In this document: positions 9-13,902 of the stretch, one piece after another
Layout: every line of letters begins with the position of its first letter
Numbering within the stretch: position 1 is the stretch's first letter
Source: a virus
Taxonomy: Duplodnaviria; Caudoviricetes
IMG/VR virus record: IMGVR_UViG_3300036796_000048
Span: 7,335 to 71,334 of that record
Reading direction: 5' to 3' (one strand)
DNA length: 64,000 nt
Notes under the pieces: generated by a model
The model's database searches: none
Seen by the model: the letters and a program-made list of their open reading frames with translations, nothing else
Told to the model about the DNA's origin: nothing
Program-made: the position numbers and the translations under genes

Positions 9-461
9 TTGCCAGTTAACGTCCTGTACACTGCTCTACAGCAGGATGAAGAAGATGAAGAGGGCGAGAAAGTGGTTTTGCCTATGCTCCAAGGTAAAGG
101 CACCCAGTACGCTAAGAAAGTGGCTAGCTGGATGACCAGTTTCGGCAACATGCGTGTTCGCCGACGCACTGAGGAAGATGCTCAAGGTGAGCGTAAAGTG
201 GTTGAGTACCGCCAGATCCAATGGGCTGGTAGCAAGAGTGTTATGGCTAAGGACAGGACGCGTTGTCTTGAGCCTAAGACCGTGAATCTGTCTCTCAAGG
301 AAGTTCGTGAGATTCTTGAGAATGGCCCAAAGCCTACGCCGCAACCAGGCCGAGTTGTGCCTGAGAAGAAGGCAAATACGGTAGTGCGTAGGAAAGCGGC
401 AGAGTCAGAAGATGAAGAAAGTAATGTGGTTAATTTGGCCAGTGTAGGGAGTGACGAATGA
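9..461 (+). CDS. C-terminal part of a probable AAA/Sak4-like ATPase (5'-truncated by window edge)
   Basis: Frame is open to the window edge. It lies directly upstream of (ATGA overlap) an SSB-like gene, the usual ATPase+SSB recombination pair. No Walker A within the window. Confidence 0.4.
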   Translation: MPVNVLYTALQQDEEDEEGEKVVLPMLQGKGTQYAKKVASWMTSFGNMRVRRRTEEDAQGERKVVEYRQIQWAGSKSVMAKDRTRCLEPKTVNLSLKEVREILENGPKPTPQPGRVVPEKKANTVVRRKAAESEDEESNVVNLASVGSDE

Positions 462-1156
462 AGGTAAAGTGGGACGTAGACGGCAAAGGTGTTGCGCCTC
501 AACAGGGAATGGGGTATAGCGGCCCAGATTTGCCGAAGGGTAGTTATGTTGCTAAGATCAAGCGCATGACTATCGGCAAGATCAGTAAGGAAGGTGAAAA
601 CCACAATAAGCCACGCATTTCTGTTTTGTTGGAAGTTGTCGGGCCTGAGGATGCGTCTGAGTATATCGGTCACCCGATTTGGGATGGATTGAATATCATC
701 GAGTCTGGACGCGGTTATGTCAATGCGTTTCTTCACGCGTTGACCGATGGCAGCAAATCGGCTAAGGATGCTGTGGAGAAAGCATTTTGGCCGCCGAACG
801 GCCCGAATGCGAAGCGTGAAGCCAACAAGGACGGAAGCAAATCCGACTTACACGTCAAGAAGATTGGTCGTTATGTTATCGCTTCGCCGAATGGCGAGCA
901 TTTGGTTCAGATTGTAGCCAAGCCGGACAGTTACCAGGGTAAGTTCCGTGCTGTCGTTGATCAGTATATTCCGTATGCTGGTAAGCAAACCAACAAGGTC
1001 GCGGACGATGACGACTTGGATGACGACGATGACGATTTGATCGTTGACGCCGACGAACTTGACGGCCCGAATGGCAGAATGGTCGATGATCTGGAAGATG
1101 ACGACGACCCAGACATGCCCGACGACGATGATGACGACGACGAACCACCATTCTGA
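458..1156 (+). CDS. Single-stranded DNA-binding protein (DUF669-like)
   Basis: N-terminal LPKGSYVAKIK...ISVLLEVV pattern and a very acidic tail ending DDDDEPPF, like the SSB C-terminal tip. Confidence 0.6.
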   Translation: MKVKWDVDGKGVAPQQGMGYSGPDLPKGSYVAKIKRMTIGKISKEGENHNKPRISVLLEVVGPEDASEYIGHPIWDGLNIIESGRGYVNAFLHALTDGSKSAKDAVEKAFWPPNGPNAKREANKDGSKSDLHVKKIGRYVIASPNGEHLVQIVAKPDSYQGKFRAVVDQYIPYAGKQTNKVADDDDLDDDDDDLIVDADELDGPNGRMVDDLEDDDDPDMPDDDDDDDEPPF

Positions 1157-1312: not shown

Positions 1313-1504
1313 ATGCTTTACAGAATTAGATGGCGACAAGAGGGTGAAACTATAATTTTTGGTAAGTCCGAAGATGACGTCAAAGACAAGCTCAGCGAGT
1401 CTCTAAAGAGTACTGAGATTCCGCACTTCTTTGATCAGCAGACTGAGTGGGACGACCCAGAATTGCTATCGTGTGAGGTTGTAGATCGGGGGCCAAAGTC
1501 ATGA
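1313..1504 (+). CDS. Hypothetical protein
   Basis: AGGAGA RBS at ~1302; ATGA overlap with next gene. Confidence 0.65.
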   Translation: MLYRIRWRQEGETIIFGKSEDDVKDKLSESLKSTEIPHFFDQQTEWDDPELLSCEVVDRGPKS

Positions 1505-2316
1505 CTAAAAGCGTTGCTATTCTAGGTTGCGGCCCGGCGGGTTTATTGGTAGCGCATGCTGCTGAAATATCTGGTTGGAATTTTCGCATATATAGCAAGA
1601 AGCAGAAGAGCAAGCTATATGGTGCACAATATCTACACCAAGCTATACCACAATTAGACTGTGGGCCACCTACGCTTGTAAGATATGCGTTACGCGGGAC
1701 GCCCGAAGAATACCGGCGCAAAGTGTACGGAGCCGAATGGGACGGTACAGTGAGCCCAGAAGACTTCCTTGAGGAACACTACGTGTGGGACATCCGCTAC
1801 ACATACGATGGCATCTGGGATAGATACCAAGATGAAATTGAGTCTTGGGACTTTATAGGCAAAGAACAATACAATAACTATTATTTAACATACAAGCATG
1901 ATCTTGTAATCAGCACAGTACCGCGTAAGATTTGGGCAGAGCCTGGCGATGTATTTGAAAGTACAAAAGTGTGGGCGCTAGGTGATACTGAAGATGAACG
2001 CGTGCGTATGTTTAGGCCACCAGAGGATATGGTGTTTTGCGATGGCACAGACGAACATACATGGTATCGCGTAAGCAACATATTTGGTTATTGTACTATG
2101 GAGTGGCCATACGATCCTTTACATAAAATTAACAGCAGACTTACGTTGAAGCCGCCAATGCGTGGTACTAGCGTAGTGGAGAAGCCATTGCGACATAATA
2201 GCAAAGCCGCAGCTGACTTTGTACATGTTGGCCGCTATGGTGCTTGGCAAAAAGGCATACTGACAACTGATGCATTCTTTGAGTCAATGAAAGTGTTGGC
2301 GAGCGATCATGTATGA
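1501..2316 (+). CDS. FAD/NAD(P)-dependent oxidoreductase
   Basis: N-terminal Rossmann motif VAILGCGPAGLLVA; C-terminal VGRYGAW FAD-binding motif. Confidence 0.75.
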   Translation: MTKSVAILGCGPAGLLVAHAAEISGWNFRIYSKKQKSKLYGAQYLHQAIPQLDCGPPTLVRYALRGTPEEYRRKVYGAEWDGTVSPEDFLEEHYVWDIRYTYDGIWDRYQDEIESWDFIGKEQYNNYYLTYKHDLVISTVPRKIWAEPGDVFESTKVWALGDTEDERVRMFRPPEDMVFCDGTDEHTWYRVSNIFGYCTMEWPYDPLHKINSRLTLKPPMRGTSVVEKPLRHNSKAAADFVHVGRYGAWQKGILTTDAFFESMKVLASDHV

Positions 2317-2839
2317 TGCTATATTATTATTTGGCCCTGGACATGGCGAGAAGATGCAAACTAGTGGTACAGATTTGTTGATGTACCAAGAGCAGAATAG
2401 TGTTGTTTTTAACCCTGCGCCGACAGATCCACGTGATTTATTAAATGATATGTTCAAAAGCAGACACACTTACCGACTAACGGAAGTGATGAATAACGAT
2501 CTTGGCGAGGAATGCTATGTGTATATGCATGACTCAAACTGTTGCGAAGATATGTACAAAGACAATATGGACAATTTACGTGAAACGCTTGAGCCAACTA
2601 TTGCTGAATTTTACCAAGATAATCCACAAGACTTTTACAAAGCATATGAAGCAGGACGTGCCAGATTCAAGATGCTAGCACAAGAAAATAGGCCCCGACC
2701 AACTGTCGATGAATTTTATGCTGCATATCCAGACTTTTTTAACAAGCTAGCAGAACAAAAAATACATAGCCCAACCATAGCTGAGTTTTACCAAGATAAT
2801 CCACACCTACGCCCGGCGTGGTTAAACTATGAAACATAA
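2309..2839 (+). CDS. Hypothetical protein with three internal PT(I/V)xEFY repeats
   Basis: 171+ codon ORF coupled to both neighbours; repeats PTIAEFYQDNP x2 and PTVDEFYAAYP. Confidence 0.6.
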   Translation: MYDAILLFGPGHGEKMQTSGTDLLMYQEQNSVVFNPAPTDPRDLLNDMFKSRHTYRLTEVMNNDLGEECYVYMHDSNCCEDMYKDNMDNLRETLEPTIAEFYQDNPQDFYKAYEAGRARFKMLAQENRPRPTVDEFYAAYPDFFNKLAEQKIHSPTIAEFYQDNPHLRPAWLNYET

Positions 2840-3458
2840 TGGCAATGGCCCAGTTGTGGCCATAGACATTGATGGCACTTTAGGAGATTACCATGGGCAT
2901 TTCTTGCGATTCGCAGAAGCTTGGTATGGACGGCCAATGCCCAATGCCAAAGACATCAATCCGGGACTTCCGTTGCACAAGTTCATGCGCACTAGCAAAG
3001 CAACCTACCGCGATTGTAAACTTGCTTATCGCCAGGGCGGACAAAAGCGATCCATGCCAGCATACCCAGGAGCTAGTGAACTTTGTAGATCAATTAGAAA
3101 AACTGGCGCAGAGTTGTGGATTTGTACTACGCGCCCATACTTGCGGCTTGACAACATCGACCCAGATACTCGTCATTGGCTCAGACGTAATCGAATTCAG
3201 TATGACGCCGTAATATATGGTGAACATAAATATCGCGATCTTGTAAAGTATGTAGGCAAAGACCGTATTGTATGTATATTTGACGACTTGCCTGAGATGA
3301 TACAACAAGCCGATCATCTTGGGATTATAAGTCTGTTGCGAGACCAACCATATAACAAACATATACGTAAAATGCATTGTTTTCATACATTGGATGATGC
3401 CCAATCGAATATATTATGGCGAATTGAAAGGTGGAGGGAACAAAATGGGATGCGATGA
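2829..3458 (+). CDS. HAD-family phosphatase / 5'(3')-deoxyribonucleotidase-like
   Basis: Motif I VAIDIDGTL, motif II ICTTR, motif IV IFDD. Confidence 0.8.
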   Translation: MKHNGNGPVVAIDIDGTLGDYHGHFLRFAEAWYGRPMPNAKDINPGLPLHKFMRTSKATYRDCKLAYRQGGQKRSMPAYPGASELCRSIRKTGAELWICTTRPYLRLDNIDPDTRHWLRRNRIQYDAVIYGEHKYRDLVKYVGKDRIVCIFDDLPEMIQQADHLGIISLLRDQPYNKHIRKMHCFHTLDDAQSNILWRIERWREQNGMR

Positions 3459-3963
3459 TTATGGCGACACTACTGCCGGCACAGGAGCGCCTTGGTATGC
3501 GCAGTCGCAAACAACCAATATGGGTGGGCCAGAATTAGTTGGGGGACCGCTTAAAGATGAAGAAGACCACAACTTGGCCAAAATGATACGCGCAACAGCA
3601 TTAGCACATACAGAGTTACCTACTTTGTTTGTTATCAATGAGAGGGATAACAAAATTATTTACGAGTTTATAAATATACCGCACGAAGAAGCATACAAAA
3701 TAATTGTACTAGCACTACCTAAAGTGTTGAATCTGTGGCTTGAGAAAACCGCCGACTATGGCGACGACCACGCATTAGATCTGGGGCCCAAAGGCGAGTT
3801 TGTACGCATCTGGAACAAAGTACATAAGCTAAAGCGTGCTTTGTGGGATGGTAGACATATGGCCGGCGAGCAGACAGATGAGATACTATCTGACTTAATT
3901 GGCCATAGCTTACGCATATTGGGTCGCATTTGGGGTAGCCCTAAAGGGACTGAAGGCGTATAA
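3445..3963 (+). CDS. Nucleotide-modification-associated domain 1 (Nmad1/DUF1599)-like helical protein
   Basis: EKTADYG...RIWNKVHKLK...EILSDLIGHS matches the K-x-x-DYG / R-x-x-x-K / DLxG pattern of this family. GGAGGG RBS supports the ATG at 3445. Confidence 0.55.
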   Translation: MGCDDYGDTTAGTGAPWYAQSQTTNMGGPELVGGPLKDEEDHNLAKMIRATALAHTELPTLFVINERDNKIIYEFINIPHEEAYKIIVLALPKVLNLWLEKTADYGDDHALDLGPKGEFVRIWNKVHKLKRALWDGRHMAGEQTDEILSDLIGHSLRILGRIWGSPKGTEGV

Positions 3964-3969
3964 TTAGGT

Positions 3970-4890
3970 ATGCGTTACGTTTCACTTCACCATCATAGCA
4001 CCTTCAGTTATGGAGATGGATTCGGGTTGCCGCGTGAACATGTAGAGTATTGCGCCAATCTAGGTATGAAAGCGATGGCGTTAACTGAACATGGCAATAC
4101 AAGCTCGCACCCGAGTTTGGAGAAGGCTTGTGAAGAATTTAAAATCAAAGGCATATATGGCGTGGAAGGTTATATTGCTGGGCCCAAAGAGCGTCGAAAG
4201 TGCCATCAGACTATTCTGGCTATGGACCACTCAGGTTATGCTAACCTTAATCGAATGGTGTCGCAAAGCTGGCGGGATTTTTACAGATGGCCTACGATAC
4301 ATTTGGAAACGTTGGAGAAGTACAGCGCTGGCCTCATTGTACTTTCCGGATGCGCAGACAGCACTCTCGCGTGTACGCTCTTGGGCGGAAAGTCATTTGG
4401 TGACAAAAGACTTACCTATACCCCTGAACACTACCAAAGTGCCATTAGGCTTGTGGAGTGGTACAAGAAGATATTTGGTGACAGATACTACATTGAAACT
4501 CAAAGGTTTCCTGGACTTGAGCGTACTTGCGCGCTCAACGCGGCATATGAACGAATATCCCACGATACCGGAGTTGCTCTTGCTGCGACGAGCGATTGCC
4601 ATTATGTGTTTGCTAGAGACAATGAAATGCAAAAGATATTGCATGCAGCTCATCGTTCTGCTAGTGTGTCCCAGGTTGAGGCGAGTTGGGAATACGATGT
4701 TACCCTTAATATACCAGAATCTGATACCAGAGTCTGGGATGACTTACGTGCCACTGGATTAACAGAACAAGGCGCAGAAGATGCGTTATTTAATACCAGC
4801 ATCATAGCCGATCGCTGTAATGTGATGTTGCCTAAAGTTGAGCCAATTCGCTACAAGATAGATGAAAGTGACTATGCACCATGGGTGTAG
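3970..4890 (+). CDS. dnaE: DNA polymerase III alpha, N-terminal PHP domain (split gene, part 1)
   Basis: SLHHHSTFSYGDG, LTEHG, GVEGY, LSGC and ATSDCHY PHP metal-ligand motifs are intact. Confidence 0.92.
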   Translation: MRYVSLHHHSTFSYGDGFGLPREHVEYCANLGMKAMALTEHGNTSSHPSLEKACEEFKIKGIYGVEGYIAGPKERRKCHQTILAMDHSGYANLNRMVSQSWRDFYRWPTIHLETLEKYSAGLIVLSGCADSTLACTLLGGKSFGDKRLTYTPEHYQSAIRLVEWYKKIFGDRYYIETQRFPGLERTCALNAAYERISHDTGVALAATSDCHYVFARDNEMQKILHAAHRSASVSQVEASWEYDVTLNIPESDTRVWDDLRATGLTEQGAEDALFNTSIIADRCNVMLPKVEPIRYKIDESDYAPWV

Positions 4891-5051
4891 ACTTCAGAAC
4901 TACCTGTATTTGTCCCGATCCATGGTGTCCGCTACATGCTAAATGTCAATGTGGCAGTGATATGATAATTGATGGACCCGATGAACCTGCGTTCTGTCCA
5001 AGCTGTATGATGGATCGTATGCCAGTCGGTGGTTGCAAAACCAATGTCTGA
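4881..5051 (+). CDS. 56-aa Cys-rich protein between the two dnaE halves
   Basis: Manual translation MGVDFRTTCICPDPWCPLHAKCQCGSDMIIDGPDEPAFCPSCMMDRMPVGGCKTNV. Overlaps both dnaE parts. Below the ORF-track cutoff. Confidence 0.55.
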   Translation: MGVDFRTTCICPDPWCPLHAKCQCGSDMIIDGPDEPAFCPSCMMDRMPVGGCKTNV

Positions 5052-7368
5052 TGACATCGTAACTAGAGTTGCGAAATTAACTGGAGCCTATACGACCGGA
5101 TCAGAGCAGGTCAAACTGGCTCAAGCGAGCCCAGAGGCTATAGAACTACTGCGTAGATGGCTGAACTATGGCTGGGAGTTCCGCGTAAAGCGTACTCGCA
5201 ACACCAACTTGAAGAAAAACCGCCAGGAATATGTGAAGAGGGTTGAAAATGAACTTGGGCTCATTATTGGAAAAGGGTTCGTTGATTATTTTCTCGTCAC
5301 ATCCGATATCGTCAGGTGGGCTAAAGACAACAAGATTCCTGTTGGCCCGGCACGTGGATCTGCTGCCGCTTCCGTCGTGTGCTACCTATTGCGAATCACA
5401 GAGGTTGATCCTGTACAACACCCCAACATGCTATTTGAGCGTTTCATCGACCCAACACGGGAAGAATTGCCCGACATTGATCTCGACTTTGATGATGAAA
5501 GGCGTCACGAAGTATTCCAGTACGCTGCTGAAAAGTATGGGGCCGAGTGTGTCGGTCACATCGGAAACTTTACCAGGTATCGTGGTAAAAATAGCTTGGA
5601 TGATGTGGCGCGAGTTTACCAAATCCCTAAGTGGGAAGTCGAAACTGTCAAAGGTCTAATCATTGAAAGGAGTGGTGGTGACTCACGACTATCAGACTCG
5701 CTCGAAGACACTTTTGCTACCTTTGCTAAAGCACAAGATGTCTTGGACCGTCATCCGAACCTCGCCAACGCTATCCGGTTGGAGGGCAATTACCGTGGAA
5801 TGGGGGTTCATGCGGCAGGACTCGTTATTTCCAACGCTCCGATTAACAATTTTTGTGCAACGTACACACGAGAGGTTGCGGGTCAATCTACGAGTGTTGT
5901 TGCCTATGACAAAAAAGATGCCGCCTACTTAGGATTCTTAAAGCAAGATATTCTGGGTCTTGCTACCATGGGCATGATTGGCCACGCGCTACGCATAATC
6001 GACATGGACTTGGAGGACTTATATCGTGTCCCAATTACAGACGCAGCAACGTTGCGTGCATTTCGACAAAACGATGTTATCGGAATATTCCAATTTGAAG
6101 GACGTGCAACCAGGCTGGTATGTCGTGACGTTGAGCCTGATCACTTCCAACATCTCGCCGACATCAATGCCCTTAGTAGACCTGGACCACTATTCAGCGG
6201 AATGGCTGCTGCGTATGTTGATGTCAAACACGGTCGCAAAAGGATTGAACATTACCACCCGATCGTGGATCAATACGCTTCTTGGACGTATGGGCAGATT
6301 GTTTACCAGGAGCAGGTTCTAAGGATTATCCGCGACCTTGGCGGGTTTCCCATGACCAAGATTCACGCGATTCGCCAGATCATTTCTCAAAAGTTGGGCG
6401 AAGCTCAGTTTGATGAGATGTACAAAGAGTTTGAGGAAAATGCATGTGGTCAACACGGTTGTACACCGGCACAGGCTCGCCGGATTTGGAGGTTCATGGC
6501 TACATCGGCTACATACAGTTTCAACATAGCCCATTGTATCTCTTACAGTTTGCTCGCTTTCTGGCAAATGTGGTTGAAAGTACACCACCCAGCTGCATTT
6601 TACGCAGCCCAACTTCGCAAAACCCCTGATGATGTTAGACGCAATCGACTTCTCAAGGATGCTGGCAGACACGGAATTGAAGTGGTATCACCTGACATCA
6701 TCGAAAGTGACATCACTTGGACTAAATCCGACGACCGTACTGTGTGTGCTGGTTTTCTTCAAATCCCAGGTATCGGGCCGAAAACTGCCAAAGCTATTGT
6801 GGATTACCTGGACAAAACCGTATGGGAGACCAGTCCTGATTGGGATGACCTCATTAATGTGCCGCGAATAGGCGAAGCAACACTAAACAAAATTAAATCG
6901 TTTGCGCTGGATCCAGACCCGTTCAATTTGAATTACATACGCAGTGTAATGACAGACTTGCGAAAAGAATTAAGCCCTGGCAATAAGCATTATCTGCCCA
7001 CGCCAACACATACATCAGATACACTACCAAGAGATGGGCAACATGAAGTCGTATGGTGCGGTATCCCGATGGTTCGTGAATACAAGGATCTGATTGAAGA
7101 TGAGCGAGCCAGAAGCGGTAGAGAAGTCGCAGAAATCCTTGAGAGCACGCGTGATCCTCATTTGCTTAAGTCTTGTGTGCTTAAATGTATTGACGACGGT
7201 GATGACGAGGTATATGTCAGATTCAATCGTTGGTGTTTCCCAGATTTTGCAGACCGTATTGAGTCACTACGTCTTGGTGGGGCTGATGCGATTATCATTA
7301 AAGGAATCAAGAGAGAAGGGTTTGGAGTGAGCATTCAAGTTCGAGATCTGTGGGCAGTTGAATTATGA
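5044..7368 (+). CDS. dnaE: DNA polymerase III alpha, catalytic part (split gene, part 2)
   Basis: GPARGSAAAS, ELPDIDLDF, GVHAAG, KQDILGL, IVYQEQV, YSFNIAH, HhH (IPGIGPKTA) and a C-terminal OB-like segment. Confidence 0.96.
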   Translation: MSDDIVTRVAKLTGAYTTGSEQVKLAQASPEAIELLRRWLNYGWEFRVKRTRNTNLKKNRQEYVKRVENELGLIIGKGFVDYFLVTSDIVRWAKDNKIPVGPARGSAAASVVCYLLRITEVDPVQHPNMLFERFIDPTREELPDIDLDFDDERRHEVFQYAAEKYGAECVGHIGNFTRYRGKNSLDDVARVYQIPKWEVETVKGLIIERSGGDSRLSDSLEDTFATFAKAQDVLDRHPNLANAIRLEGNYRGMGVHAAGLVISNAPINNFCATYTREVAGQSTSVVAYDKKDAAYLGFLKQDILGLATMGMIGHALRIIDMDLEDLYRVPITDAATLRAFRQNDVIGIFQFEGRATRLVCRDVEPDHFQHLADINALSRPGPLFSGMAAAYVDVKHGRKRIEHYHPIVDQYASWTYGQIVYQEQVLRIIRDLGGFPMTKIHAIRQIISQKLGEAQFDEMYKEFEENACGQHGCTPAQARRIWRFMATSATYSFNIAHCISYSLLAFWQMWLKVHHPAAFYAAQLRKTPDDVRRNRLLKDAGRHGIEVVSPDIIESDITWTKSDDRTVCAGFLQIPGIGPKTAKAIVDYLDKTVWETSPDWDDLINVPRIGEATLNKIKSFALDPDPFNLNYIRSVMTDLRKELSPGNKHYLPTPTHTSDTLPRDGQHEVVWCGIPMVREYKDLIEDERARSGREVAEILESTRDPHLLKSCVLKCIDDGDDEVYVRFNRWCFPDFADRIESLRLGGADAIIIKGIKREGFGVSIQVRDLWAVEL

Positions 7369-7631
7369 CTGAAGCCGTCAATAGGGATATAAGTGGTGAA
7401 CGCGCACCATCTCCTGAAGATAGACAAAAAGCGCAAGCATTGATGCAAATGCTAGCACAGGCCGGTGCTGCAAGTAGGCAAGAGTATAAACCCATATTGA
7501 AATTGCTAGATGAAATCGGTTGTAAGTATACCACCAAAGATGGTTGGCTACGCATTAACATCAGAGAGCTGATTGAAGCAGAGTGGCAACACATGGGTAA
7601 ATATCAACTAAAACAACCAGAGGATAAGTAA
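7365..7631 (+). CDS. Hypothetical protein
   Basis: ATGA and TAATG coupling with dnaE and thyX. Confidence 0.6.
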   Translation: MTEAVNRDISGERAPSPEDRQKAQALMQMLAQAGAASRQEYKPILKLLDEIGCKYTTKDGWLRINIRELIEAEWQHMGKYQLKQPEDK

Positions 7632-8500
7632 TGGACGACAAGTACGCATTTAGCAGGACGAAAGACTGTCATGACAATAACATTCTTCTTCGTGATGCTG
7701 CTTTCAATAAACACACCACCAATGACGGCCATCATGTTAGCCCTTACGACCAAGCTCATATCGATGTTGGTTTTGATGATATTACCGTTAAATTGGTCCA
7801 AGGCATCGATGAAGAATCATTCAAGAGAACGCTATCAAAAGCACAACGCGCAACAATTGGAATACCTGCCGACGACGATGGAGACATCGGTGACTGGGAA
7901 GAGATGATGAAGGGTGGCTTACAAACTGCGCTCGAAAGTCAAACTATTATATTTGAAGTCATTGGTTTATCTCGTGCGACGACACATCAACTCGTTAGGT
8001 CCAGACGTGCGGCTTTCCATCAGCAGTCGATGCGAGCAAGTTACATGGGGGATAGGCCCAATTACCGCCTCCCAGAGTCCGTTTTTCGCTCCATTCGGGC
8101 CAGGGAGGCTTTCAGTAAAGCTATAGAAGCTGCTCATGATGCTTACAGAATCGCTTGTGAAGAAGAAGTGAGCTACCAAGATGCCAGATATATCTTACCA
8201 ATTGGTACGGAAACATATATCATGTGCGAATATCCAGTTAGGGAGTTTCTTGCAGTTTATGCCTATAGAGCATGTTCCATGTTCCAATGGGAAATCTGCC
8301 ATATTATACGTGAAATGGGACGAGTGCTCACAGAAGCACACCCTTGGATAAAGCCGTATGTGAAGATCAGCTGTGAGTCTATGAAAAAGTGTACATTTCA
8401 AGGATGGGAAGACGTCGAGCAGGGTTGCGACTTCCCATGGGCGAATTGGGAGGATCGCATTTACAAACCTGAAGCGCATAGAATTAGGACAAACAAATGA
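7631..8500 (+). CDS. thyX: ThyX-family flavin-dependent thymidylate synthase (divergent)
   Basis: SRATTHQLVRSR-X7-SMR (RHR-X7-SXR variant), YQDARYILP and QWEI motifs. Confidence 0.85.
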   Translation: MDDKYAFSRTKDCHDNNILLRDAAFNKHTTNDGHHVSPYDQAHIDVGFDDITVKLVQGIDEESFKRTLSKAQRATIGIPADDDGDIGDWEEMMKGGLQTALESQTIIFEVIGLSRATTHQLVRSRRAAFHQQSMRASYMGDRPNYRLPESVFRSIRAREAFSKAIEAAHDAYRIACEEEVSYQDARYILPIGTETYIMCEYPVREFLAVYAYRACSMFQWEICHIIREMGRVLTEAHPWIKPYVKISCESMKKCTFQGWEDVEQGCDFPWANWEDRIYKPEAHRIRTNK

Positions 8501-8658
8501 CACCTGAGCAACGATTGCTTATGGCAATACTTAAGGATGGTTGTATTCGGTGTGAACAATTTTTTAAATGTGGCGATGATACTACAGAAGTGACTGGTTT
8601 GTTGCTACACACAGCATGCTTAACTGAAGATGACAAATTAGCATTAACATATCAATAA
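8497..8658 (+). CDS. Small hypothetical protein (CxxC)
   Basis: Manual translation MTPEQRLLMAILKDGCIRCEQFF...; ATGA overlap with thyX. Confidence 0.5.
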   Translation: MTPEQRLLMAILKDGCIRCEQFFKCGDDTTEVTGLLLHTACLTEDDKLALTYQ

Positions 8659-8727
8659 AGCCTTGGCCGGCTGTCCTTACCATTAAAATTGACACCAGTG
8701 AGTGCAGTATGGTAGGGAAAGTGGCAC

Positions 8728-9429
8728 GTGACAACTACAGCTATTCGTATGCGTGGCATTACGACAGTTGACATAACTAAGGCAACTAAGCGGAGGCGCA
8801 GATACATTTTAGATGAGGAAATAACTTATGACAACGCAACTGTTATCGCCATCGATCCTGGCGGCACTACAGGATGGGCGCTCATATCAGTCCCACCTGA
8901 ATCATTATGCGAGCCCGACGTGCCCATTCTGTCAAATATTTGGCAGCACCAGCACGGACAGGTGGATTGCGGTAGCCACAGAGGAAATTTGGATACCACA
9001 TTGCACCCAGGAATTAGCACAGACGGAGAGTTTTCAGGCGTTTATGACCTTGTTAAGTTCATTAAGAGCTGGCCGTGTGCGTCCGTGGTTATTGAGGATT
9101 TTCAACTCAGGGTCCACCGAATGGATCGTGAGTTGCTTAGCCCTGTTCGCATCACCGCCGCCATCGGTTATAATCTCTGGGAATCAGGACGAGACTATCA
9201 CGTTCAAACGCCGACAGACGCTAAAAGAGTTTGCACTGACGATAGACTTAAAGAGTGGAAAATGTACGACCCAGTCGGCGGTTTAGTACACGCTAGAGAT
9301 GCCGACCGTCATGCGTTACTCTTCCTGCGTAAAGCTAAGGCAAAGCCTCAGTTTCGTGCTCAGGCGTGGCCGCACCTATTCGGTCCGCGTGGCGCTTATC
9401 GAGTACGGAACGGCCATGCCAAAGTGTGA
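8728..9429 (+). CDS. ruvC: RuvC-like Holliday junction resolvase
   Basis: VIAIDPGGTTGWA, VVIEDF and HARDA RNase H-fold catalytic motifs. Confidence 0.78.
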   Translation: MTTTAIRMRGITTVDITKATKRRRRYILDEEITYDNATVIAIDPGGTTGWALISVPPESLCEPDVPILSNIWQHQHGQVDCGSHRGNLDTTLHPGISTDGEFSGVYDLVKFIKSWPCASVVIEDFQLRVHRMDRELLSPVRITAAIGYNLWESGRDYHVQTPTDAKRVCTDDRLKEWKMYDPVGGLVHARDADRHALLFLRKAKAKPQFRAQAWPHLFGPRGAYRVRNGHAKV

Positions 9430-10012
9430 TCCAGGATGTAGGTGTGGTCGCCATAAGAAAGCTAGCAAGACCGGCAAACAATGTGAAGTTATTGATGCCG
9501 ACGGATTGTGCTATGAACCAATATTCAGAGCAAAGTTATGTGCTTGCTATAAACACTATATGAGATGGAAACGAACAGGCAGCTTTGAACGACAAATAGC
9601 AAAACCTGATAATAGTCCTGAAGCATTATCCGCAAGAGCCAAAAATCGTAAACGTGGCAAACAACTTGAGTATGAACGAATGATGTATGCCATCTGTATG
9701 TGTACGCATTCTTTTGTTGAGCACAGCAAAGGTGATGGCAGGATGAGCAAAGATAAACGCGCTCATTGTCTACATCCTGGTTGTGAATGTACAAAGTATG
9801 ACCAAGCAGCTAGAACAGCAATTGAAGAGGTGACTAACAACCTCAAAGCAGTAGGTTTTACACTATACATCAATGATGTAGCTACATGCGTAAAATGCTT
9901 TCAAGTGATCAAGATAGGGAGTTGGTCAGACCCATGGGCCATTAAACGTGCTTTGAACCACAGCAAAAAGGAATGCCCGTCTCTGCATAAGTTATACAGT
10001 ACTGGCACCTAA
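9416..10012 (+). CDS. Cys/His-rich multi-zinc-binding protein
   Basis: CDPGCRCGRH, LCACYKHYMRWKRTG, CMCTH..H, CLHPGCEC, CVKC motifs. Confidence 0.55.
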   Translation: MPKCDPGCRCGRHKKASKTGKQCEVIDADGLCYEPIFRAKLCACYKHYMRWKRTGSFERQIAKPDNSPEALSARAKNRKRGKQLEYERMMYAICMCTHSFVEHSKGDGRMSKDKRAHCLHPGCECTKYDQAARTAIEEVTNNLKAVGFTLYINDVATCVKCFQVIKIGSWSDPWAIKRALNHSKKECPSLHKLYSTGT

Positions 10013-10053
10013 ATGTAGTAGCCTGAACTAACCCGATGGAGTAGACTTACGCT

Positions 10054-10311
10054 ATGGCCGACGACTGGCGCGATCGCATGGAAGATGCGTTTCAAAGCAG
10101 AGAGCCATTTATTGGCCACCCACTTCTACCAATTCCGCTGCGAGAAAATTCTGCTAAGACTGAACGCATAAGCGTGTATGTTGAGCTAGATTTGCTCAAG
10201 TTTTTTGAACAGTACGCAGCCCGTGGCGGGTTTAGGTCAACGTCCGAAGTGGTACGCAGATTAGCAATTCTTGGTGCTACCAAGGAGGGCTATCAATTCC
10301 ATGAGGAGTGA
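10054..10311 (+). CDS. Ribbon-helix-helix DNA-binding protein
   Basis: RISVYVELDLLKFFEQYAARGGFRSTSEVVRRL fits the CopG/NikR RHH pattern. Confidence 0.65.
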   Translation: MADDWRDRMEDAFQSREPFIGHPLLPIPLRENSAKTERISVYVELDLLKFFEQYAARGGFRSTSEVVRRLAILGATKEGYQFHEE

Positions 10312-10727
10312 CCGCAATGAAGTACAAGAGACTTTTGAATATGCCGATAGTTTCGGTATGGACAGTCCGGACAACGTTTGCGAAGATTGCCCTGGGTGGT
10401 CTCGTGGCTGCTGCGTGTTTGAATATGACCCAAGCGAAAGCCGATCCTGACGACGACCCAACTTATGGTAGTCCTGAACAACGGCATGATGCTCTTTTAA
10501 TGTGCCAAGTTCTTGATGCTAGCCCAACAGAATCAACCGTGCTGAAGTTTATACACGGTATGTACTTGGCTAACTTAACAATACCGCAAGCAGTTGATAC
10601 GCTTAAGCTTGGGGTGACTTATTGCCCAGAGTATGCAACACTAGTAAATGGCGCAATACAAGACGCAACAAAAGCTGGTAACCCGCCAGCGGCCAAACAA
10701 CCAGAGAAAGTAGAAACATATGCCTGA
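10308..10727 (+). CDS. Secreted DUF732-like protein
   Basis: Signal peptide ending AKA-DP; MCQVLD...TYCPEY Cys pair typical of mycobacterial DUF732. Confidence 0.55.
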   Translation: MTAMKYKRLLNMPIVSVWTVRTTFAKIALGGLVAAACLNMTQAKADPDDDPTYGSPEQRHDALLMCQVLDASPTESTVLKFIHGMYLANLTIPQAVDTLKLGVTYCPEYATLVNGAIQDATKAGNPPAAKQPEKVETYA

Positions 10728-11112
10728 GTCACTACCAAACATAGCCGAGACTGTACACCAAGAATACGACGGCAAGTGGTATTGGCGTATATTGCGCGAT
10801 GGCTTGCCGCTTGCAGCTAGTGGAGAATTGTATGATACTGAAGTAGAGTGCTTGAGGCACTTCTTTGCCATCTTCTTTGGCAGCTATGATGAGAGCTATG
10901 TTGATCTGTACCGTCGTTGGCAAACGCTGTCTGTTGGCGAGCCAGTACCAGAAAGCTACATACATATTAAAGAGCAGCCAGCACCAGGACCAAAGAGTGA
11001 AGCTGACGGCCCCAATTACGAGTATGATGCGGACGCAAAAGCAGATGCTTTGTTGAAGGCGCGTGAGGAAAGTTTGCAACGCCATCCTGCTACCGGGCAA
11101 TATGATGACTAA
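10720..11112 (+). CDS. Hypothetical protein, DUF1508/YegP-like N-terminal segment
   Basis: GKWYWRI...LAASGELYDTEVEC resembles the DUF1508 consensus. Confidence 0.4.
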   Translation: MPESLPNIAETVHQEYDGKWYWRILRDGLPLAASGELYDTEVECLRHFFAIFFGSYDESYVDLYRRWQTLSVGEPVPESYIHIKEQPAPGPKSEADGPNYEYDADAKADALLKAREESLQRHPATGQYDD

Positions 11113-11329
11113 AGAACAAGCTAAAGCGCGACACCCAGCAGGAAGAATGAGCACGGACCCGATTGTAATAGCACAGAAGTATCTGTGGAGTATTGGTAGG
11201 TGCGGCAGCCGCCAGCCTAATGGCAGCAAGTTATGTAACCAAACAGCCAACCACCAGGGTCGCAACCACGCACAACAGGTGTTCGGCGGTGTAAATGATG
11301 GTGACACTTTGGTGGAATGGCCATGGTAA
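11102..11329 (+). CDS. Hypothetical protein
   Basis: Coupled ORF with a C-x9-C-x4-H-x3-H motif. Confidence 0.5.
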   Translation: MMTKEQAKARHPAGRMSTDPIVIAQKYLWSIGRCGSRQPNGSKLCNQTANHQGRNHAQQVFGGVNDGDTLVEWPW

Positions 11330-11526
11330 TGAAAAAGTTTTGGGAAGGTTTTTGGGCAGGCATGATGGCTGCTAATATCGGGTGGGCCATTGGAATGTTG
11401 GTGCTGATAAAATGGTAGATATACCAGAACACATCATTGAAATGTTTGATAAGTACCCAAACATTCTTGAGTATGGTGAAAACAATAGTGATGGCACTAG
11501 CTGTTTTTATACCAAGGAAATGATCA

Positions 11527-11772
11527 ATGACAGCAGAACTTGATTGGTCACTTGACGACGATGGCACCCAATTTGCAAATGGTGAACATCTAGGTTTTGA
11601 GATAGATCTGGATAATGAACTAGCCGTATTTGAAGACGACAAATGTGTAGCGATACGCAAAGCTGTCGATATAGACCATGCTGAATACTTAGCTAATGCG
11701 TTTGAGCGAACAGCCGCATTTTACAAACAGCTTGAGAGTGAAGGCAAACCACAACCTAGAAGGGTTTGGTGA
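11527..11772 (+). CDS. Hypothetical acidic protein
   Basis: 81-aa ORF with AAGGA RBS in the co-directional array. Confidence 0.55.
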   Translation: MTAELDWSLDDDGTQFANGEHLGFEIDLDNELAVFEDDKCVAIRKAVDIDHAEYLANAFERTAAFYKQLESEGKPQPRRVW

Positions 11773-11773
11773 C

Positions 11774-11914
11774 ATGGGTCTGTTACCGACAATACCAGAT
11801 ATAACAAAAGAAGTAACAATAGCAATGCAACCGATGATGGATGAGCTAACCAAAATCAGGGCGTTGTTGGAAGAGTTGCTTGAGGTACAAAGAAAACAAC
11901 TGGAGTTGGCATGA
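11774..11914 (+). CDS. Small coiled-coil protein
   Basis: MGLLPTIPD...LTKIRALLEELLEVQRKQLE; coupled to neighbours. Confidence 0.5.
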   Translation: MGLLPTIPDITKEVTIAMQPMMDELTKIRALLEELLEVQRKQLELA

Positions 11915-12258
11915 CCATACCTGGTTGCTCTTGTGGCGGCTACATTATGAGTAATGGCCTGTGCGCTTGTGGCTTGCGACCAGACCAGCGACACGTACAC
12001 AGGACTACAAAAACTGACAGCGGACATGTAGTCTGTATGGATTGCCACCAAGCAATCATTGAGCCAATACTTACTAGCGATGACCCGAGATTGTTGCCTG
12101 ACTTTGCGCCGCTACCATTTGATTTAGTTTTGTTATGGCAAGAAGAGAATGCCCCAATAGCACCATATGTTGAGTATATGTCTGCGCTATACCAGCCAAC
12201 CAGTTTAACACATTGGCAAGATATATTCTTGCAACTAAAGGATGTTGTAAGTGCTTGA
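11911..12258 (+). CDS. Cys-rich hypothetical protein
   Basis: CSCGG...CACG...H...CMDCH; ATGA overlap. Confidence 0.55.
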   Translation: MTIPGCSCGGYIMSNGLCACGLRPDQRHVHRTTKTDSGHVVCMDCHQAIIEPILTSDDPRLLPDFAPLPFDLVLLWQEENAPIAPYVEYMSALYQPTSLTHWQDIFLQLKDVVSA

Positions 12259-12934
12259 TATGTTTGTTGATGGCGCGAGTGTAGCCAGTACATACCCGTT
12301 GTATTGGCTAACAAGTCGCATCGGTATTGCGCTTGTTAAGCGATGGCCGCTTAAGCCTGTGGCCGAAGAATTTAGAGTGCTTGAAGTTGAACCAGACCAA
12401 GATAATTTACAGAAGCTCATTGCCGAAGCTGTAGCTAAGCAACGCATACAAGACCAAGTTGACGAGATTGCGAATGAAAACCGCAAATTGGAGGCAGAGG
12501 TTAAGCGCAAGCGTGATGAGTATGTCCATGAGATGGACAAATTTCGTGGGCGCGGCGGCGACACGTTGGTTGAGGCACCAGACGGCACTACAATCAGAGT
12601 GGATGATTTACAGAGACTTACGCCCGAATATGAAGCATATTTACAGAAGCGGCGGGTGGAGCGTGACAGACGACGAATGGGTTGGTCTGGGACGAAAGCA
12701 GTTGCGATATTTAGCAGGACATTCGCGCAATGGCAACTGGAACATGAAGTAGCAGAGAAGCCATATAGACTACAAAATGTTGTTACCTTAGATGGTGTAC
12801 ACCCAAGCCCTACCAGCATTACACGCCACATAGTTACATCTGGCGATGGTTGGTCTGGCACTAGCATTACAGGTGATGCTATGGGTACTACACGAAGTGA
12901 ATACCTAGCAAGAAAGTATAGGATACCAACATGA
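12251..12934 (+). CDS. Hypothetical coiled-coil protein
   Basis: 227-aa ORF coupled to both neighbours. Confidence 0.65.
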   Translation: MLDMFVDGASVASTYPLYWLTSRIGIALVKRWPLKPVAEEFRVLEVEPDQDNLQKLIAEAVAKQRIQDQVDEIANENRKLEAEVKRKRDEYVHEMDKFRGRGGDTLVEAPDGTTIRVDDLQRLTPEYEAYLQKRRVERDRRRMGWSGTKAVAIFSRTFAQWQLEHEVAEKPYRLQNVVTLDGVHPSPTSITRHIVTSGDGWSGTSITGDAMGTTRSEYLARKYRIPT

Positions 12935-13203
12935 GCAAAGAGCATTACAAAGATTCTGTTGTACATATAGCGTTTCCAGTGCTAGCACACCCACCAAAGA
13001 GCAAGGATGAGCAACCAGTACGTATTCAATATGGACCAGGCAGGAGAAGGCAACGTGTGAATGGTATTCACAGATCGGCCAAGCATGGGCGTAACAGGAG
13101 GCTACAACAAGCGCAGGGATTTGCACTACGCAGAGTCACTTTTGGGTATGCTGACCCAACGAAACTTAGGCGCGTGCGACCCAAAGAAGCAGTGGGAGAT
13201 TGA
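12931..13203 (+). CDS. Basic hypothetical protein
   Basis: ATGA overlap; Arg-rich. Confidence 0.5.
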   Translation: MSKEHYKDSVVHIAFPVLAHPPKSKDEQPVRIQYGPGRRRQRVNGIHRSAKHGRNRRLQQAQGFALRRVTFGYADPTKLRRVRPKEAVGD

Positions 13204-13233
13204 TGAACATTTTGTAAGCAATGTAGTAACCAA

Positions 13234-13902
13234 ATGGGCAAAGGAGCGTTATCTGTGAATGAACACTCTATTGAATTGCCCGGTCTTGAGCTCAAACCAG
13301 GTGATGTGCTGTATTTTTATGCCTGTGGCGATGAAGTCAAGACACGCGTCAACGACGAGCCTATGCGCTACTACCGGCGCAAAGCATCAAGTAGTAAAGT
13401 TTTTGTTGAAGTAGTGGAAGGATCTGTAATGGATGTAGTGGATAAGAATGAACCATTTGACCAGACTGAGTTTGCGATACAACTAAATAGTTATGCACAA
13501 TCTGTACACCGTTGCGCAGTTGATCATGGTTGGTGGGGTGGAGGCCCAGACTTGCCTATGGGCTTGATTGACCGCAACATGGGTGAGATGATAGCACTTA
13601 TGCATTCTGAGCTATCTGAAGCGCTGGAAGAATATCGTGATAACAAACCATACCTGTACTATGTCTGTGATCCACCACTTAACAGCGGATACACTGGTAT
13701 ACAGACTTGGGAAGGACCACCCAATTTATCTGGTACAGACTTACTTGGTAAACCAGAAGGTTTAGCTGCTGAGTTTGCTGATGTAATAATCAGGATCCTG
13801 GATACATGTGCGAAAATGGATATACCTATTACAGAAGCGTTGCTACGCAAGCACGAATACAATTTAACACGCCCATACCGACACGGAGGAAAGTTAGCAT
13901 GA
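13234..13902 (+). CDS. MazG-like nucleotide pyrophosphohydrolase
   Basis: IALMHSELSEALEEYR and AAEFADVIIRILD (ExxE...ExxD) motifs. Start uncertain. Confidence 0.78.
   Translation: MGKGALSVNEHSIELPGLELKPGDVLYFYACGDEVKTRVNDEPMRYYRRKASSSKVFVEVVEGSVMDVVDKNEPFDQTEFAIQLNSYAQSVHRCAVDHGWWGGGPDLPMGLIDRNMGEMIALMHSELSEALEEYRDNKPYLYYVCDPPLNSGYTGIQTWEGPPNLSGTDLLGKPEGLAAEFADVIIRILDTCAKMDIPITEALLRKHEYNLTRPYRHGGKLA

Follow-up and report, generated by a model that had tools for sequence, protein, structure and literature searches.

In the ThyA-based pathway of thymidine hypermodification a deoxyuridine (dU) modified at C5 is made before replication and tailored afterwards, using a deoxyuridine monophosphate (dUMP) hydroxymethylase, a P-loop 5-hydroxymethyl-dU (5-hmdU) DNA kinase, an aGPT-Pplase and a flavoenzyme of the DAAO/GR2 fold class, the flavin-dependent lyase PaMx11 gp47 (PMC5889632, PMC8989533). 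A modified thymidine has also been reported from Pbunaviruses. According to a preprint (bioRxiv 10.1101/2025.03.31.646159), DNA of phage F8 resists enzymes with TG-containing sites, and liquid chromatography-mass spectrometry of nucleoside digests of F8 and 14-1 virion DNA revealed derivatives of thymidine with masses of 362 and 390 Da. These take the place of roughly one in four T, where T precedes G, and the authors interpret them as derived from a tetrose sugar alcohol and from an aldopentose. In the SEA-PHAGES literature, a block of oxidoreductase, phosphatase, methyltransferase, FabG-like reductase, DnaE, MazG and ThyX-like genes is described from clusters AE, BN, D, DG, DV and EF (PMC11385102); it is annotated in databases and uncharacterised, and we found no paper linking it to DNA modification. 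Here we analysed such a locus in a 64,000-nucleotide stretch of DNA from an uncultured actinophage (the window), bases 7335-71334 of the 71,334-bp IMG/VR virus record IMGVR_UViG_3300036796_000048, which is rated 100% complete. An earlier reading of the window (the original prediction) had placed a candidate modified-nucleotide pathway around its replication genes.

We propose, at a probability of roughly 0.5, that this locus is a thymidine-tailoring module and that the virion DNA carries a predicted modified thymidine. As judged from sequence, the module is a flavoprotein, a HAD phosphatase/nucleotidase, an Nmad1-like protein and a ThyX-fold enzyme without the signature His and Tyr, flanking DnaE, and it is widespread and biochemically uncharacterised. 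Comparative evidence, namely the ThyX variant, the gene set shared with Pbunaviruses and a TAGT-family glycosyltransferase upstream of the window, raises the modified-thymidine reading well above the support given by the window alone. The proposed pathway resembles the ThyA-based one in concept only: in both, a C5-modified dU would precede replication and its tailoring would follow, and both include a flavoenzyme. Neither a dUMP hydroxymethylase nor a 5-hmdU DNA kinase nor an aGPT-Pplase was found here in Pfam and PHROG scans, which covered about 70 open reading frames (ORFs) outside the structural-module ORFs at 27000-53000. A ThyX-fold one-carbon enzyme is without precedent in such a pathway.

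Organization of the module

The genes of the window all lie on the + strand and occupy about 95% of its length. The module and its accessory gene comprise the following features:

1501-2316, + strand: virus-only compact flavoprotein of 271 amino acids, predicted two-domain fold binding flavin adenine dinucleotide (FAD); labelled 'oxidoreductase', in phrog_8720 (a family with no assigned function)
2829-3458, + strand: NT5C-type 5'(3')-deoxyribonucleotidase/phosphatase of the HAD superfamily; PF06941, DIDGT intact
3445-3963, + strand: Nmad1-like protein with a disordered N-terminus and a conserved three-helix domain; our own profile
3970-4890, + strand: DnaE PHP-domain subunit, 306 amino acids; PF02811, 4e-34
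5044-7368, + strand: DnaE polymerase core (NTPase, finger and HhH domains), ATG at 5044; PF07733, 4e-74 and PF17657, 5e-35
7631-8500, + strand: ThyX-like protein (type 1); PF02511 (Thy1), 2e-28
13234-13902, + strand: MazG-like all-alpha nucleoside triphosphate (NTP) pyrophosphohydrolase with a 75-residue N-terminal extension; phrog_3301, 2.7e-38

Every gene named in the original prediction was found in its place and on the + strand. It had also described the flavoprotein, nucleotidase and Nmad1-like genes as translationally linked immediately upstream of DnaE. Start and stop codons indeed overlap at 1501-1504, 2309-2316, 2829-2839 and 3445-3458, forming a chain from 1313 to 3963, and DnaE follows directly; however, DnaE is split and a further coupled ORF at 2309-2839 had gone unmentioned.

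The ThyX-like protein

The divergent ThyX that had been placed after DnaE was recovered at 7631-8500, where the protein matched Thy1 (PF02511) at 99.8 bits against a cut-off of 24.8. The match aligns only to model positions 43-191, and the first 90 residues are unrelated to the model. We aligned the protein by phmmer to Thermotoga maritima ThyX (1O26/1KQ4-type chains) and checked the numbering on R147, R174, H53 and S88. Equivalents of the dUMP-binding residues R78, R80, S88, R90, R147 and R174 are kept, and H53 is replaced by L, H79 by S, Y91 by A and H178 by M. The ThyX signature RHR-x7-S-x-R-Y reads RSR-x7-S-M-R-A here and so departs from the pattern. Loss of the RHR His and of the S-x-R-Y Tyr is repeated in at least 40 relatives, whose ThyX-like proteins fall into two conserved subtypes, RSR..S.RA[SY] and RQR..S.RFAV, both without the His and the Tyr. 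The fold family is common to the canonical T. maritima enzyme and the ThyX-like protein, but the latter differs in always having a separate flavoprotein. The ThyX-like protein is a distinct, conserved, virus-only variant that always accompanies the flavoprotein.

An 88-kb relative (L080) carries, in order, the flavoprotein, a 108-residue DUF1599-like ORF, the ThyX-like protein, a canonical full-length ThyX (141 bits) and DnaE. The 108-residue ORF is the positional equivalent of the Nmad1-like gene and scores 17.5 bits with DUF1599, below the cut-off of 25. The presence of the variant beside a canonical ThyX argues that it does something other than, or beyond, synthesis of thymidine monophosphate (dTMP), and that it would not simply be the thymidylate synthase. 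The stretch L080:9893-17126 spans the module, and its DnaE, 1413 residues long, seems to contain an intein into which an HNH-type element is inserted.

The flavoprotein

The partner of the ThyX-like protein begins with a Rossmann motif, GCGPAG, of the GxGxxG dinucleotide-binding type. It has at least 937 homologues, nearly all unnamed or called 'oxidoreductase' in mycobacteriophages, is present in 126 cultured actinophage records and is 54% identical to the Cluster D orthologue of PBI1/KandZ. An AlphaFold model built with 36 homologues (predicted local distance difference test, pLDDT, 86.6) has the two-domain FAD fold of the GR2 group (PHBH, DAAO, UDP-galactopyranose mutase (UGM), amine oxidase). 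In VIA this model matched dozens of FAD enzymes at Z 11-14 over 230-263 of its 271 residues, UGM being the top match (Z 14.2, 263 residues) and class A monooxygenases scoring Z 12-13.6, the best of them less than one Z unit behind. Foldseek gave 475 matches at E<=1e-3, with VioD, DAAO, PHBH and UGM at E ~1e-7. In the Atlas the family is virus-specific, and its nearest clusters are amine-oxidase, FAD_binding_3 and GLF (template modelling (TM) score 0.73 to a GLF cluster).

No Pfam family matched the flavoprotein, and Pfam and PDB sequence searches reached only its Rossmann N-terminus, so they do not choose between a UGM-like and a monooxygenase-like enzyme. The FAD oxidoreductase of the original prediction therefore holds at fold level, on the GCGPAG motif and the model, and does not extend to a Pfam family or to one of these two enzyme types. 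Against identity as a UGM, there was no match to GLF (PF03275) at E<=10, and the protein has 271 residues compared with 365-473 in UGM chains.

Predicted nucleotidase and pyrophosphohydrolases

The HAD nucleotidase read at 2829 is well founded. The protein scored 39.6 bits with NT5C (PF06941; cut-off 24.8), residues 8-195 aligning to positions 2-174 of the 180 in the model, and HAD motif I (DxDxT) is intact as AIDIDGTLGD at residues 11-20.

The next gene had been called Nmad1/DUF1599-like. Its conserved domain covers about residues 100-175 of the 189-residue frame and keeps an E..E..D pattern, and the model of this C-terminal domain predicts three helices (pLDDT 87). BFVD matches of the model include many viral proteins labelled 'Nmad1' (nucleotide modification associated domain 1) at TM 0.6-0.75 and E 0.04-0.5. 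PDB matches are weak (E>0.4) and are to the all-alpha NTP pyrophosphatases AF_0060, iMazG and dCTPase; in the Atlas the nearest clusters are DUF1599 at 0.84, with TM 0.46. The DUF1599 (PF07659) hidden Markov model (HMM) found no match at E<=10 in the protein, in the six-frame genome or in the records of five relatives. Given the Nmad1 structural matches and the lack of a DUF1599 HMM match, the name 'Nmad1-like' is used for a probable fold and not for a sequence family. A word-indexed search with the domain returned only five proteins, and homologues were taken from the related loci instead.

A MazG-like pyrophosphohydrolase had been noted nearby and is confirmed at 13234-13902 by phrog_3301 'pyrophosphatase', whose match spans residues 77-221. 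The acidic motifs read ELSEALEE and EFADVIIRILD, and the protein had no Pfam match. A MazG-like protein lies at the equivalent position in mycobacteriophage Onyinye (gp105). With detection in eight of the 80 related loci described below, this gene is accessory to the module.

Conservation of the module in related viruses

To collect related loci we scanned IMG/VR for a pattern taken from the flavoprotein alignment, and their gene content was determined by tblastn with the window proteins. Among the 80 loci, NT5C was detected in 63, mostly directly 3' of the flavoprotein gene, the DnaE PHP domain in 72, the DnaE core in 70, the exonuclease in 71 and Sak4 in 72. Two rounds with our own profile detected the Nmad1-like protein in 68, and most of the remaining loci are truncated. 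A whole-record HMM search found a Thy1-family gene in 47 of the 49 flavoprotein-bearing records and in all 32 of those that are at least 90% complete. Recurrence of the arrangement in 80 viral contigs shows that it is not due to chance.

The closest cultured relative is Mycobacterium phage Onyinye (MN813687), with the same gene order and a ThyX-like protein (gp86) 78% identical to ours; its flavoprotein, HAD and Nmad1-like genes are gp78, gp80 and gp81. The blocks of clusters D, DG, DV, EF, AE and BN and Onyinye gp78-gp86 are direct orthologues of this locus, and Onyinye has its split DnaE, MazG and primase at the same relative places. Cluster D phages and Onyinye were recognised as relatives through protein-level searches; at nucleotide level, the initial 14 kb had no megablast match among cultured phages beyond a short piece of DnaE in phage Leopard. 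The Cluster D methyltransferase and FabG-like reductase are not in this genome, which instead has a TAGT glycosyltransferase and an O-methyltransferase upstream. The FabG-like SDR protein (phrog_3142) is present in KandZ, FEC19 and Carpasina, and no SDR match was found among the scanned ORFs of this genome.

Homologous gene sets in phages of Gram-negative bacteria

The module was compared with the genes around ThyX in Pbunavirus Smee, which are an exonuclease, a 333-residue protein with an FAD-Rossmann start, ThyX, a HAD phosphatase, an epsilon-type exonuclease and a DnaE-type polymerase. The 333-residue flavoprotein is 97.6% identical to F8 ORF065. The block of Smee recurs in phages of Escherichia coli (FEC19), Xanthomonas (Carpasina) and Vibrio (VA-RY-3), and the FEC19 and Carpasina blocks also hold an annotated FabG-like reductase. 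The Pbunavirus, Wifcevirus FEC19 (gp33-gp40) and Carpasinavirus (gp50-gp44) blocks follow the operon logic seen here, with flavoprotein, ThyX, HAD phosphatase and DnaE, and the DnaE-type polymerase of Smee is 37% identical to the DnaE of this genome. They differ in having ThyX before DnaE rather than after it and in having Gram-negative hosts; their HAD protein is longer, and they also contain an epsilon-like exonuclease and, in most cases, a FabG-like reductase. In 18.6 kb surrounding ThyX in Smee, our own Nmad1-like profile had no match.

Alignment by hhalign of a profile of 65 actinophage-type flavoproteins with one of five from Gram-negative phages (the F8 ORF065 family) gave a probability of 96.7% with E 4e-10 over 238 columns. 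The match became clear only when these five diverse homologues were combined in a profile: with the Pbunavirus flavoprotein sequence by itself hhalign aligned only 18 residues, and in direct hmmsearch the flavoprotein profile matched the Pbunavirus protein weakly (E 0.007), with 53 of 2000 shuffles reaching the score (p ~0.03). The HAD proteins of both groups share phrog_415, the FabG-like reductases of FEC19 and KandZ share phrog_3142, and the Gram-negative-phage ThyX proteins have likewise lost the signature His and Tyr. The flavoprotein match, the common PHROGs and the ThyX losses together indicate a single module family that spans host phyla.

Modified thymidine is present in at least one of its branches, the Pbunaviruses, and these genes may be what makes it. 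By our own mass arithmetic, 362 and 390 Da fit 5-hmdU joined to a tetritol or a pentose, minus water.

In the HAD phosphatase of Vibrio phage VA-RY-3 (L088:7507-8175) the C-terminal region matches the nucleotide/dNMP-kinase PHROGs phrog_236 and phrog_26149 (dNMP, deoxynucleoside monophosphate). This region is a possible kinase, a function not found in the actinophage module.

Glycosyltransferase and methyltransferase upstream of the window

The original prediction had called the pathway incomplete as seen, with neither kinase nor glycosyltransferase in the window, and had pointed to the upstream genes. The 7.3 kb before the window hold an SNF2 helicase, a methyltransferase, a glycosyltransferase, a PD-(D/E)XK exonuclease and the first part of a Sak4-like ATPase gene. 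Two of these genes may extend the candidate pathway:

Genome bases 3844-4524: TylF/Methyltransf_24-type O-methyltransferase
Genome bases 4736-5587, 1.7 kb upstream of the window: TAGT-family glycosyltransferase of 283 amino acids; PF20691

A glycosyltransferase is thus present in the genome; neither a dNMP kinase nor a base kinase was found among the scanned ORFs. A 114-residue ORF overlaps between the two genes (genome bases 3844-5587).

The glycosyltransferase scored 32.3 bits with TAGT (PF20691; cut-off 27.5), and only model positions 3-92 of 205 align. It has an SDDD motif of the DXD type, and 15 of its 16 database homologues carry PF20691. No tblastn match was found in 50,697 cultured phage records, and it had no sequence relative in the PDB. 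The TAGT family takes in the second glucosyltransferase of T6-type phages (PMC13390438). Known TAGT systems are the T2/T6-type second glucosyltransferase of 5-glucosyl-hydroxymethylcytosine (hmC) DNA and the TET-associated glycosyltransferases, all of the same Pfam family as the upstream protein. Unlike in those systems, no TET/JBP or hmC pathway was found here among the scanned ORFs, and the gene is paired with an O-methyltransferase of virion-cassette type.

A TAGT gene occurs in nine of the 49 flavoprotein records (three of the 32 complete ones), above the Pfam cut-off in eight of 49, and in three places: between helicase and exonuclease as here, directly between the flavoprotein and NT5C genes (L067), and between DnaE and ThyX (L062). 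The upstream-type methyltransferase was detected in three of the 80 related loci. It shares 38-41% identity with O-methyltransferases from mycobacteriophages of Clusters O, F and J, and those of Cluster O lie next to glycosyltransferases acting on capsid and tail-tube proteins (PMC11600133 citing Freeman et al. 2023; PMC4351075). With TAGT membership on one side and a methyltransferase of virion-glycosylation cassettes on the other, the pair could decorate DNA or virion proteins. We regard it as an optional add-on for which a DNA target is only slightly more likely than a virion-protein target.

Hexamer palindromes

Protection of TG by a modified thymidine should relax the avoidance of palindromes containing TG/CA. 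We computed observed/expected (O/E) ratios of the 64 hexamer palindromes with a maximal-order Markov model:

This genome: TG/CA 0.83, other 0.70 (p 0.013)
Onyinye: TG/CA 0.88, other 0.60 (p 0.041)
Pbunavirus Smee: TG/CA 0.98, other 0.73 (p 0.011)
L5 (control): TG/CA 0.56, other 0.52 (p 0.82)
phiKMV (control): TG/CA 0.59, other 0.43 (p 0.32)

The median ratio of TG/CA to other palindromes was 1.21 in 59 module loci compared with 1.04 in 62 L5-like loci. Sites without TG are still under restriction pressure, suggesting that any protection is partial. The ten most depleted 6-bp palindromes of the whole genome are all without TG/CA; avoidance is strong at CTCGAG (0 observed, 3.9 expected), GTCGAC (2, 11.3), TTCGAA (2, 8.2) and CGTACG (3, 11.3). 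The tetramers TGCA and CATG are depleted in the whole genome, with O/E 0.57.

Other features of the genome

Four small ORFs lie within or beside the module:

1313-1504, + strand: 63-residue ORF with an ATGA overlap with the flavoprotein gene (translational coupling), without a family match
2309-2839, + strand: 176-residue ORF between the flavoprotein and nucleotidase genes, with the repeat PTIAEFYQDNP present twice and no family match
4881-5051, + strand: 56-residue Cys-rich (zinc-ribbon-like) ORF overlapping both DnaE pieces; Onyinye gp83 is at the equivalent position
7365-7631, + strand: 88-residue coupled ORF between DnaE and the ThyX-like gene

The 176-residue ORF was present in only three of the 80 related loci. 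The split of DnaE into PHP, Cys-rich ORF and core is as in Onyinye gp82/83/84, and Cluster D phages have a single gene of 1100 residues. A 232-residue protein at window 458-1156 (phrog_10064), encoded between the Sak4-like ATPase and flavoprotein genes and detected in 34 of the 80 related loci, has a long poly-Asp/Glu tail ending in ...EPPF that resembles the acidic tails of single-strand-binding proteins.

Downstream lie an Rv2525c-like glycoside hydrolase and PE-PPE/LysB-like lysin domains, typical for phages of mycolic-acid bacteria. The LysB-like and Rv2525c-like lysin domains point to a host that contains mycolic acids, with a lower GC content than Mycobacterium smegmatis. The GC content of the genome is 48% compared with 58.8% in Onyinye, whose host is M. 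smegmatis.

Proposed thymidine tailoring and alternative explanations

Gene identities at the level of family and fold, the conservation and co-occurrence of the genes and the homology to the Pbunavirus gene set are observations. From them we infer all of the chemistry, and that this phage has a modified base at all, as follows. The ThyX-like protein and the flavoprotein would make or process a deoxyuridine nucleotide substituted at C5, either in place of plain dTMP or in addition to it, and the product may be of the 5-hmdU type, reached via the exocyclic methylene compound that ThyX forms as an intermediate. Competing nucleotides may be the target of the HAD nucleotidase and of the Nmad1-like and MazG-like proteins, which might trim competing pools of dTMP or of deoxyuridine or thymidine triphosphate (dUTP, dTTP), or remove phosphate from an intermediate. 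The phage's own DnaE would then incorporate the analogue, replacing part of the thymidine of virion DNA, and in this lineage the upstream TAGT glycosyltransferase and O-methyltransferase may add a sugar, possibly methylated. Particular to this genome are the TAGT and O-methyltransferase add-on, the split DnaE and the lack of a reductase and methyltransferase of Cluster D type.

We put forward a more specific version tentatively, at somewhat less than even odds. The ThyX-fold enzyme and its obligatory virus-only flavoprotein would be the first flavin-dependent system, independent of ThyA, that supplies DNA with a deoxyuridine substituted at C5. This route would lie behind the sugar- or polyol-bearing thymidine that Pbunaviruses have in TG context, and hundreds of actinophages (clusters D, DG, DV and EF and Onyinye) would have a counterpart that escaped notice, the base being glycosylated here by a TAGT-type enzyme and its sugar O-methylated.

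Several observations weigh against a modified thymidine. The scanned ORFs included no dNMP kinase, dUTPase, dCMP deaminase, ThyA-type hydroxymethylase, 5-hmdU DNA kinase, aGPT-Pplase or TET/JBP, and they also lack the FabG-like reductase seen in Cluster D and Pbunavirus-type modules. More than 100 cultured actinophages have the flavoprotein and no reported modification; the measured cases are F8 and 14-1, both Pbunaviruses. We found no paper, the Pbunavirus preprint included, that assigns the modification to genes. The hexamer effect is modest and the loci are related and non-independent, 4-mer palindromes run opposite to hexamers, and other dinucleotide classes reach ratios like that of TG/CA in some genomes, so the palindrome test gives weak support only. 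With all its dUMP-binding residues in place, the ThyX-like protein might also be an ordinary thymidylate synthase. As to the silence on cultured carriers, the standard SEA-PHAGES digest enzymes (BamHI, ClaI, EcoRI, HaeIII and HindIII) have sites without TG/CA, and a TG-specific mark could therefore have gone unnoticed. The non-canonical pyrimidine of the original prediction is partly supported: it gains from the conserved ThyX variant, the set shared with Pbunaviruses and the upstream TAGT gene, and loses from the failure to find a dNMP kinase, ThyA-type hydroxymethylase, base kinase or TET/JBP among the scanned ORFs, from a MazG that is only accessory and from an upstream methyltransferase of the virion-cassette kind.

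The alternative that survives best, which we consider less likely than the proposed module, is an ordinary cassette for thymidylate supply and the deoxynucleoside triphosphate pool, in a phage with canonical DNA whose ThyX-like protein is a true divergent viral thymidylate synthase. The Nmad1-like and MazG-like proteins would then be dUTP/dCTP pyrophosphatases that feed dUMP or clean the pool, NT5C would balance dNMPs or salvage them from degraded host DNA, and the flavoprotein would be a redox helper, for example regenerating reduced flavin or the one-carbon donor. Such a cassette agrees with a Thy1 score well above the cut-off and the retention of all the dUMP-contacting Arg and Ser residues, with the place of the genes in an operon for replication and recombination that also includes helicase, exonuclease, Sak4 and DnaE, with the failure to find a kinase for a non-canonical dNMP among the scanned ORFs and with cultured carriers lacking a reported modification. 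It leaves unexplained the strict pairing with a virus-only flavoprotein, which canonical ThyX does not need, and is opposed by the canonical ThyX that adjoins the ThyX-like gene in L080, by the consistent loss of the H53, H79, Y91 and H178 equivalents across two host phyla, and by the homologous gene set in phages with proven thymidine hypermodification.

It is improbable that the flavoprotein is a UGM-like nucleotide-sugar enzyme, with the upstream pair glycosylating virion proteins (capsid, tail tube) or touching host cell-wall precursors rather than DNA and the ThyX-like protein unrelated: UGM is its best structural match (Z 14.2; GLF cluster TM 0.73) and methyltransferase homologues in Cluster O adjoin capsid and tail-tube glycosyltransferases, but 40 of the 49 flavoprotein records are without any TAGT, the flavoprotein is at least 100 residues shorter than UGMs and has no GLF HMM match, its invariable partners are ThyX-like, NT5C and DnaE and not sugar enzymes, and the glycosyltransferase belongs to the Pfam family of the T2/T6-type DNA glucosyltransferase and lies in the replication arm, not in the structural module.

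Implications

Onyinye, a cultured relative that grows on M. smegmatis, makes the question of a thymidine-tailoring module directly testable. If the proposal is true, genes would be assigned to Pbunavirus hypermodification and resistance would be predicted at TG-containing restriction sites. The module would represent a new enzymatic route in which ThyX chemistry is diverted from methylation, and this route would be spread over phages of Actinobacteria and Proteobacteria, including the Pbunaviruses of Pseudomonas phage therapy and mycobacteriophages used against mycobacterial infections.

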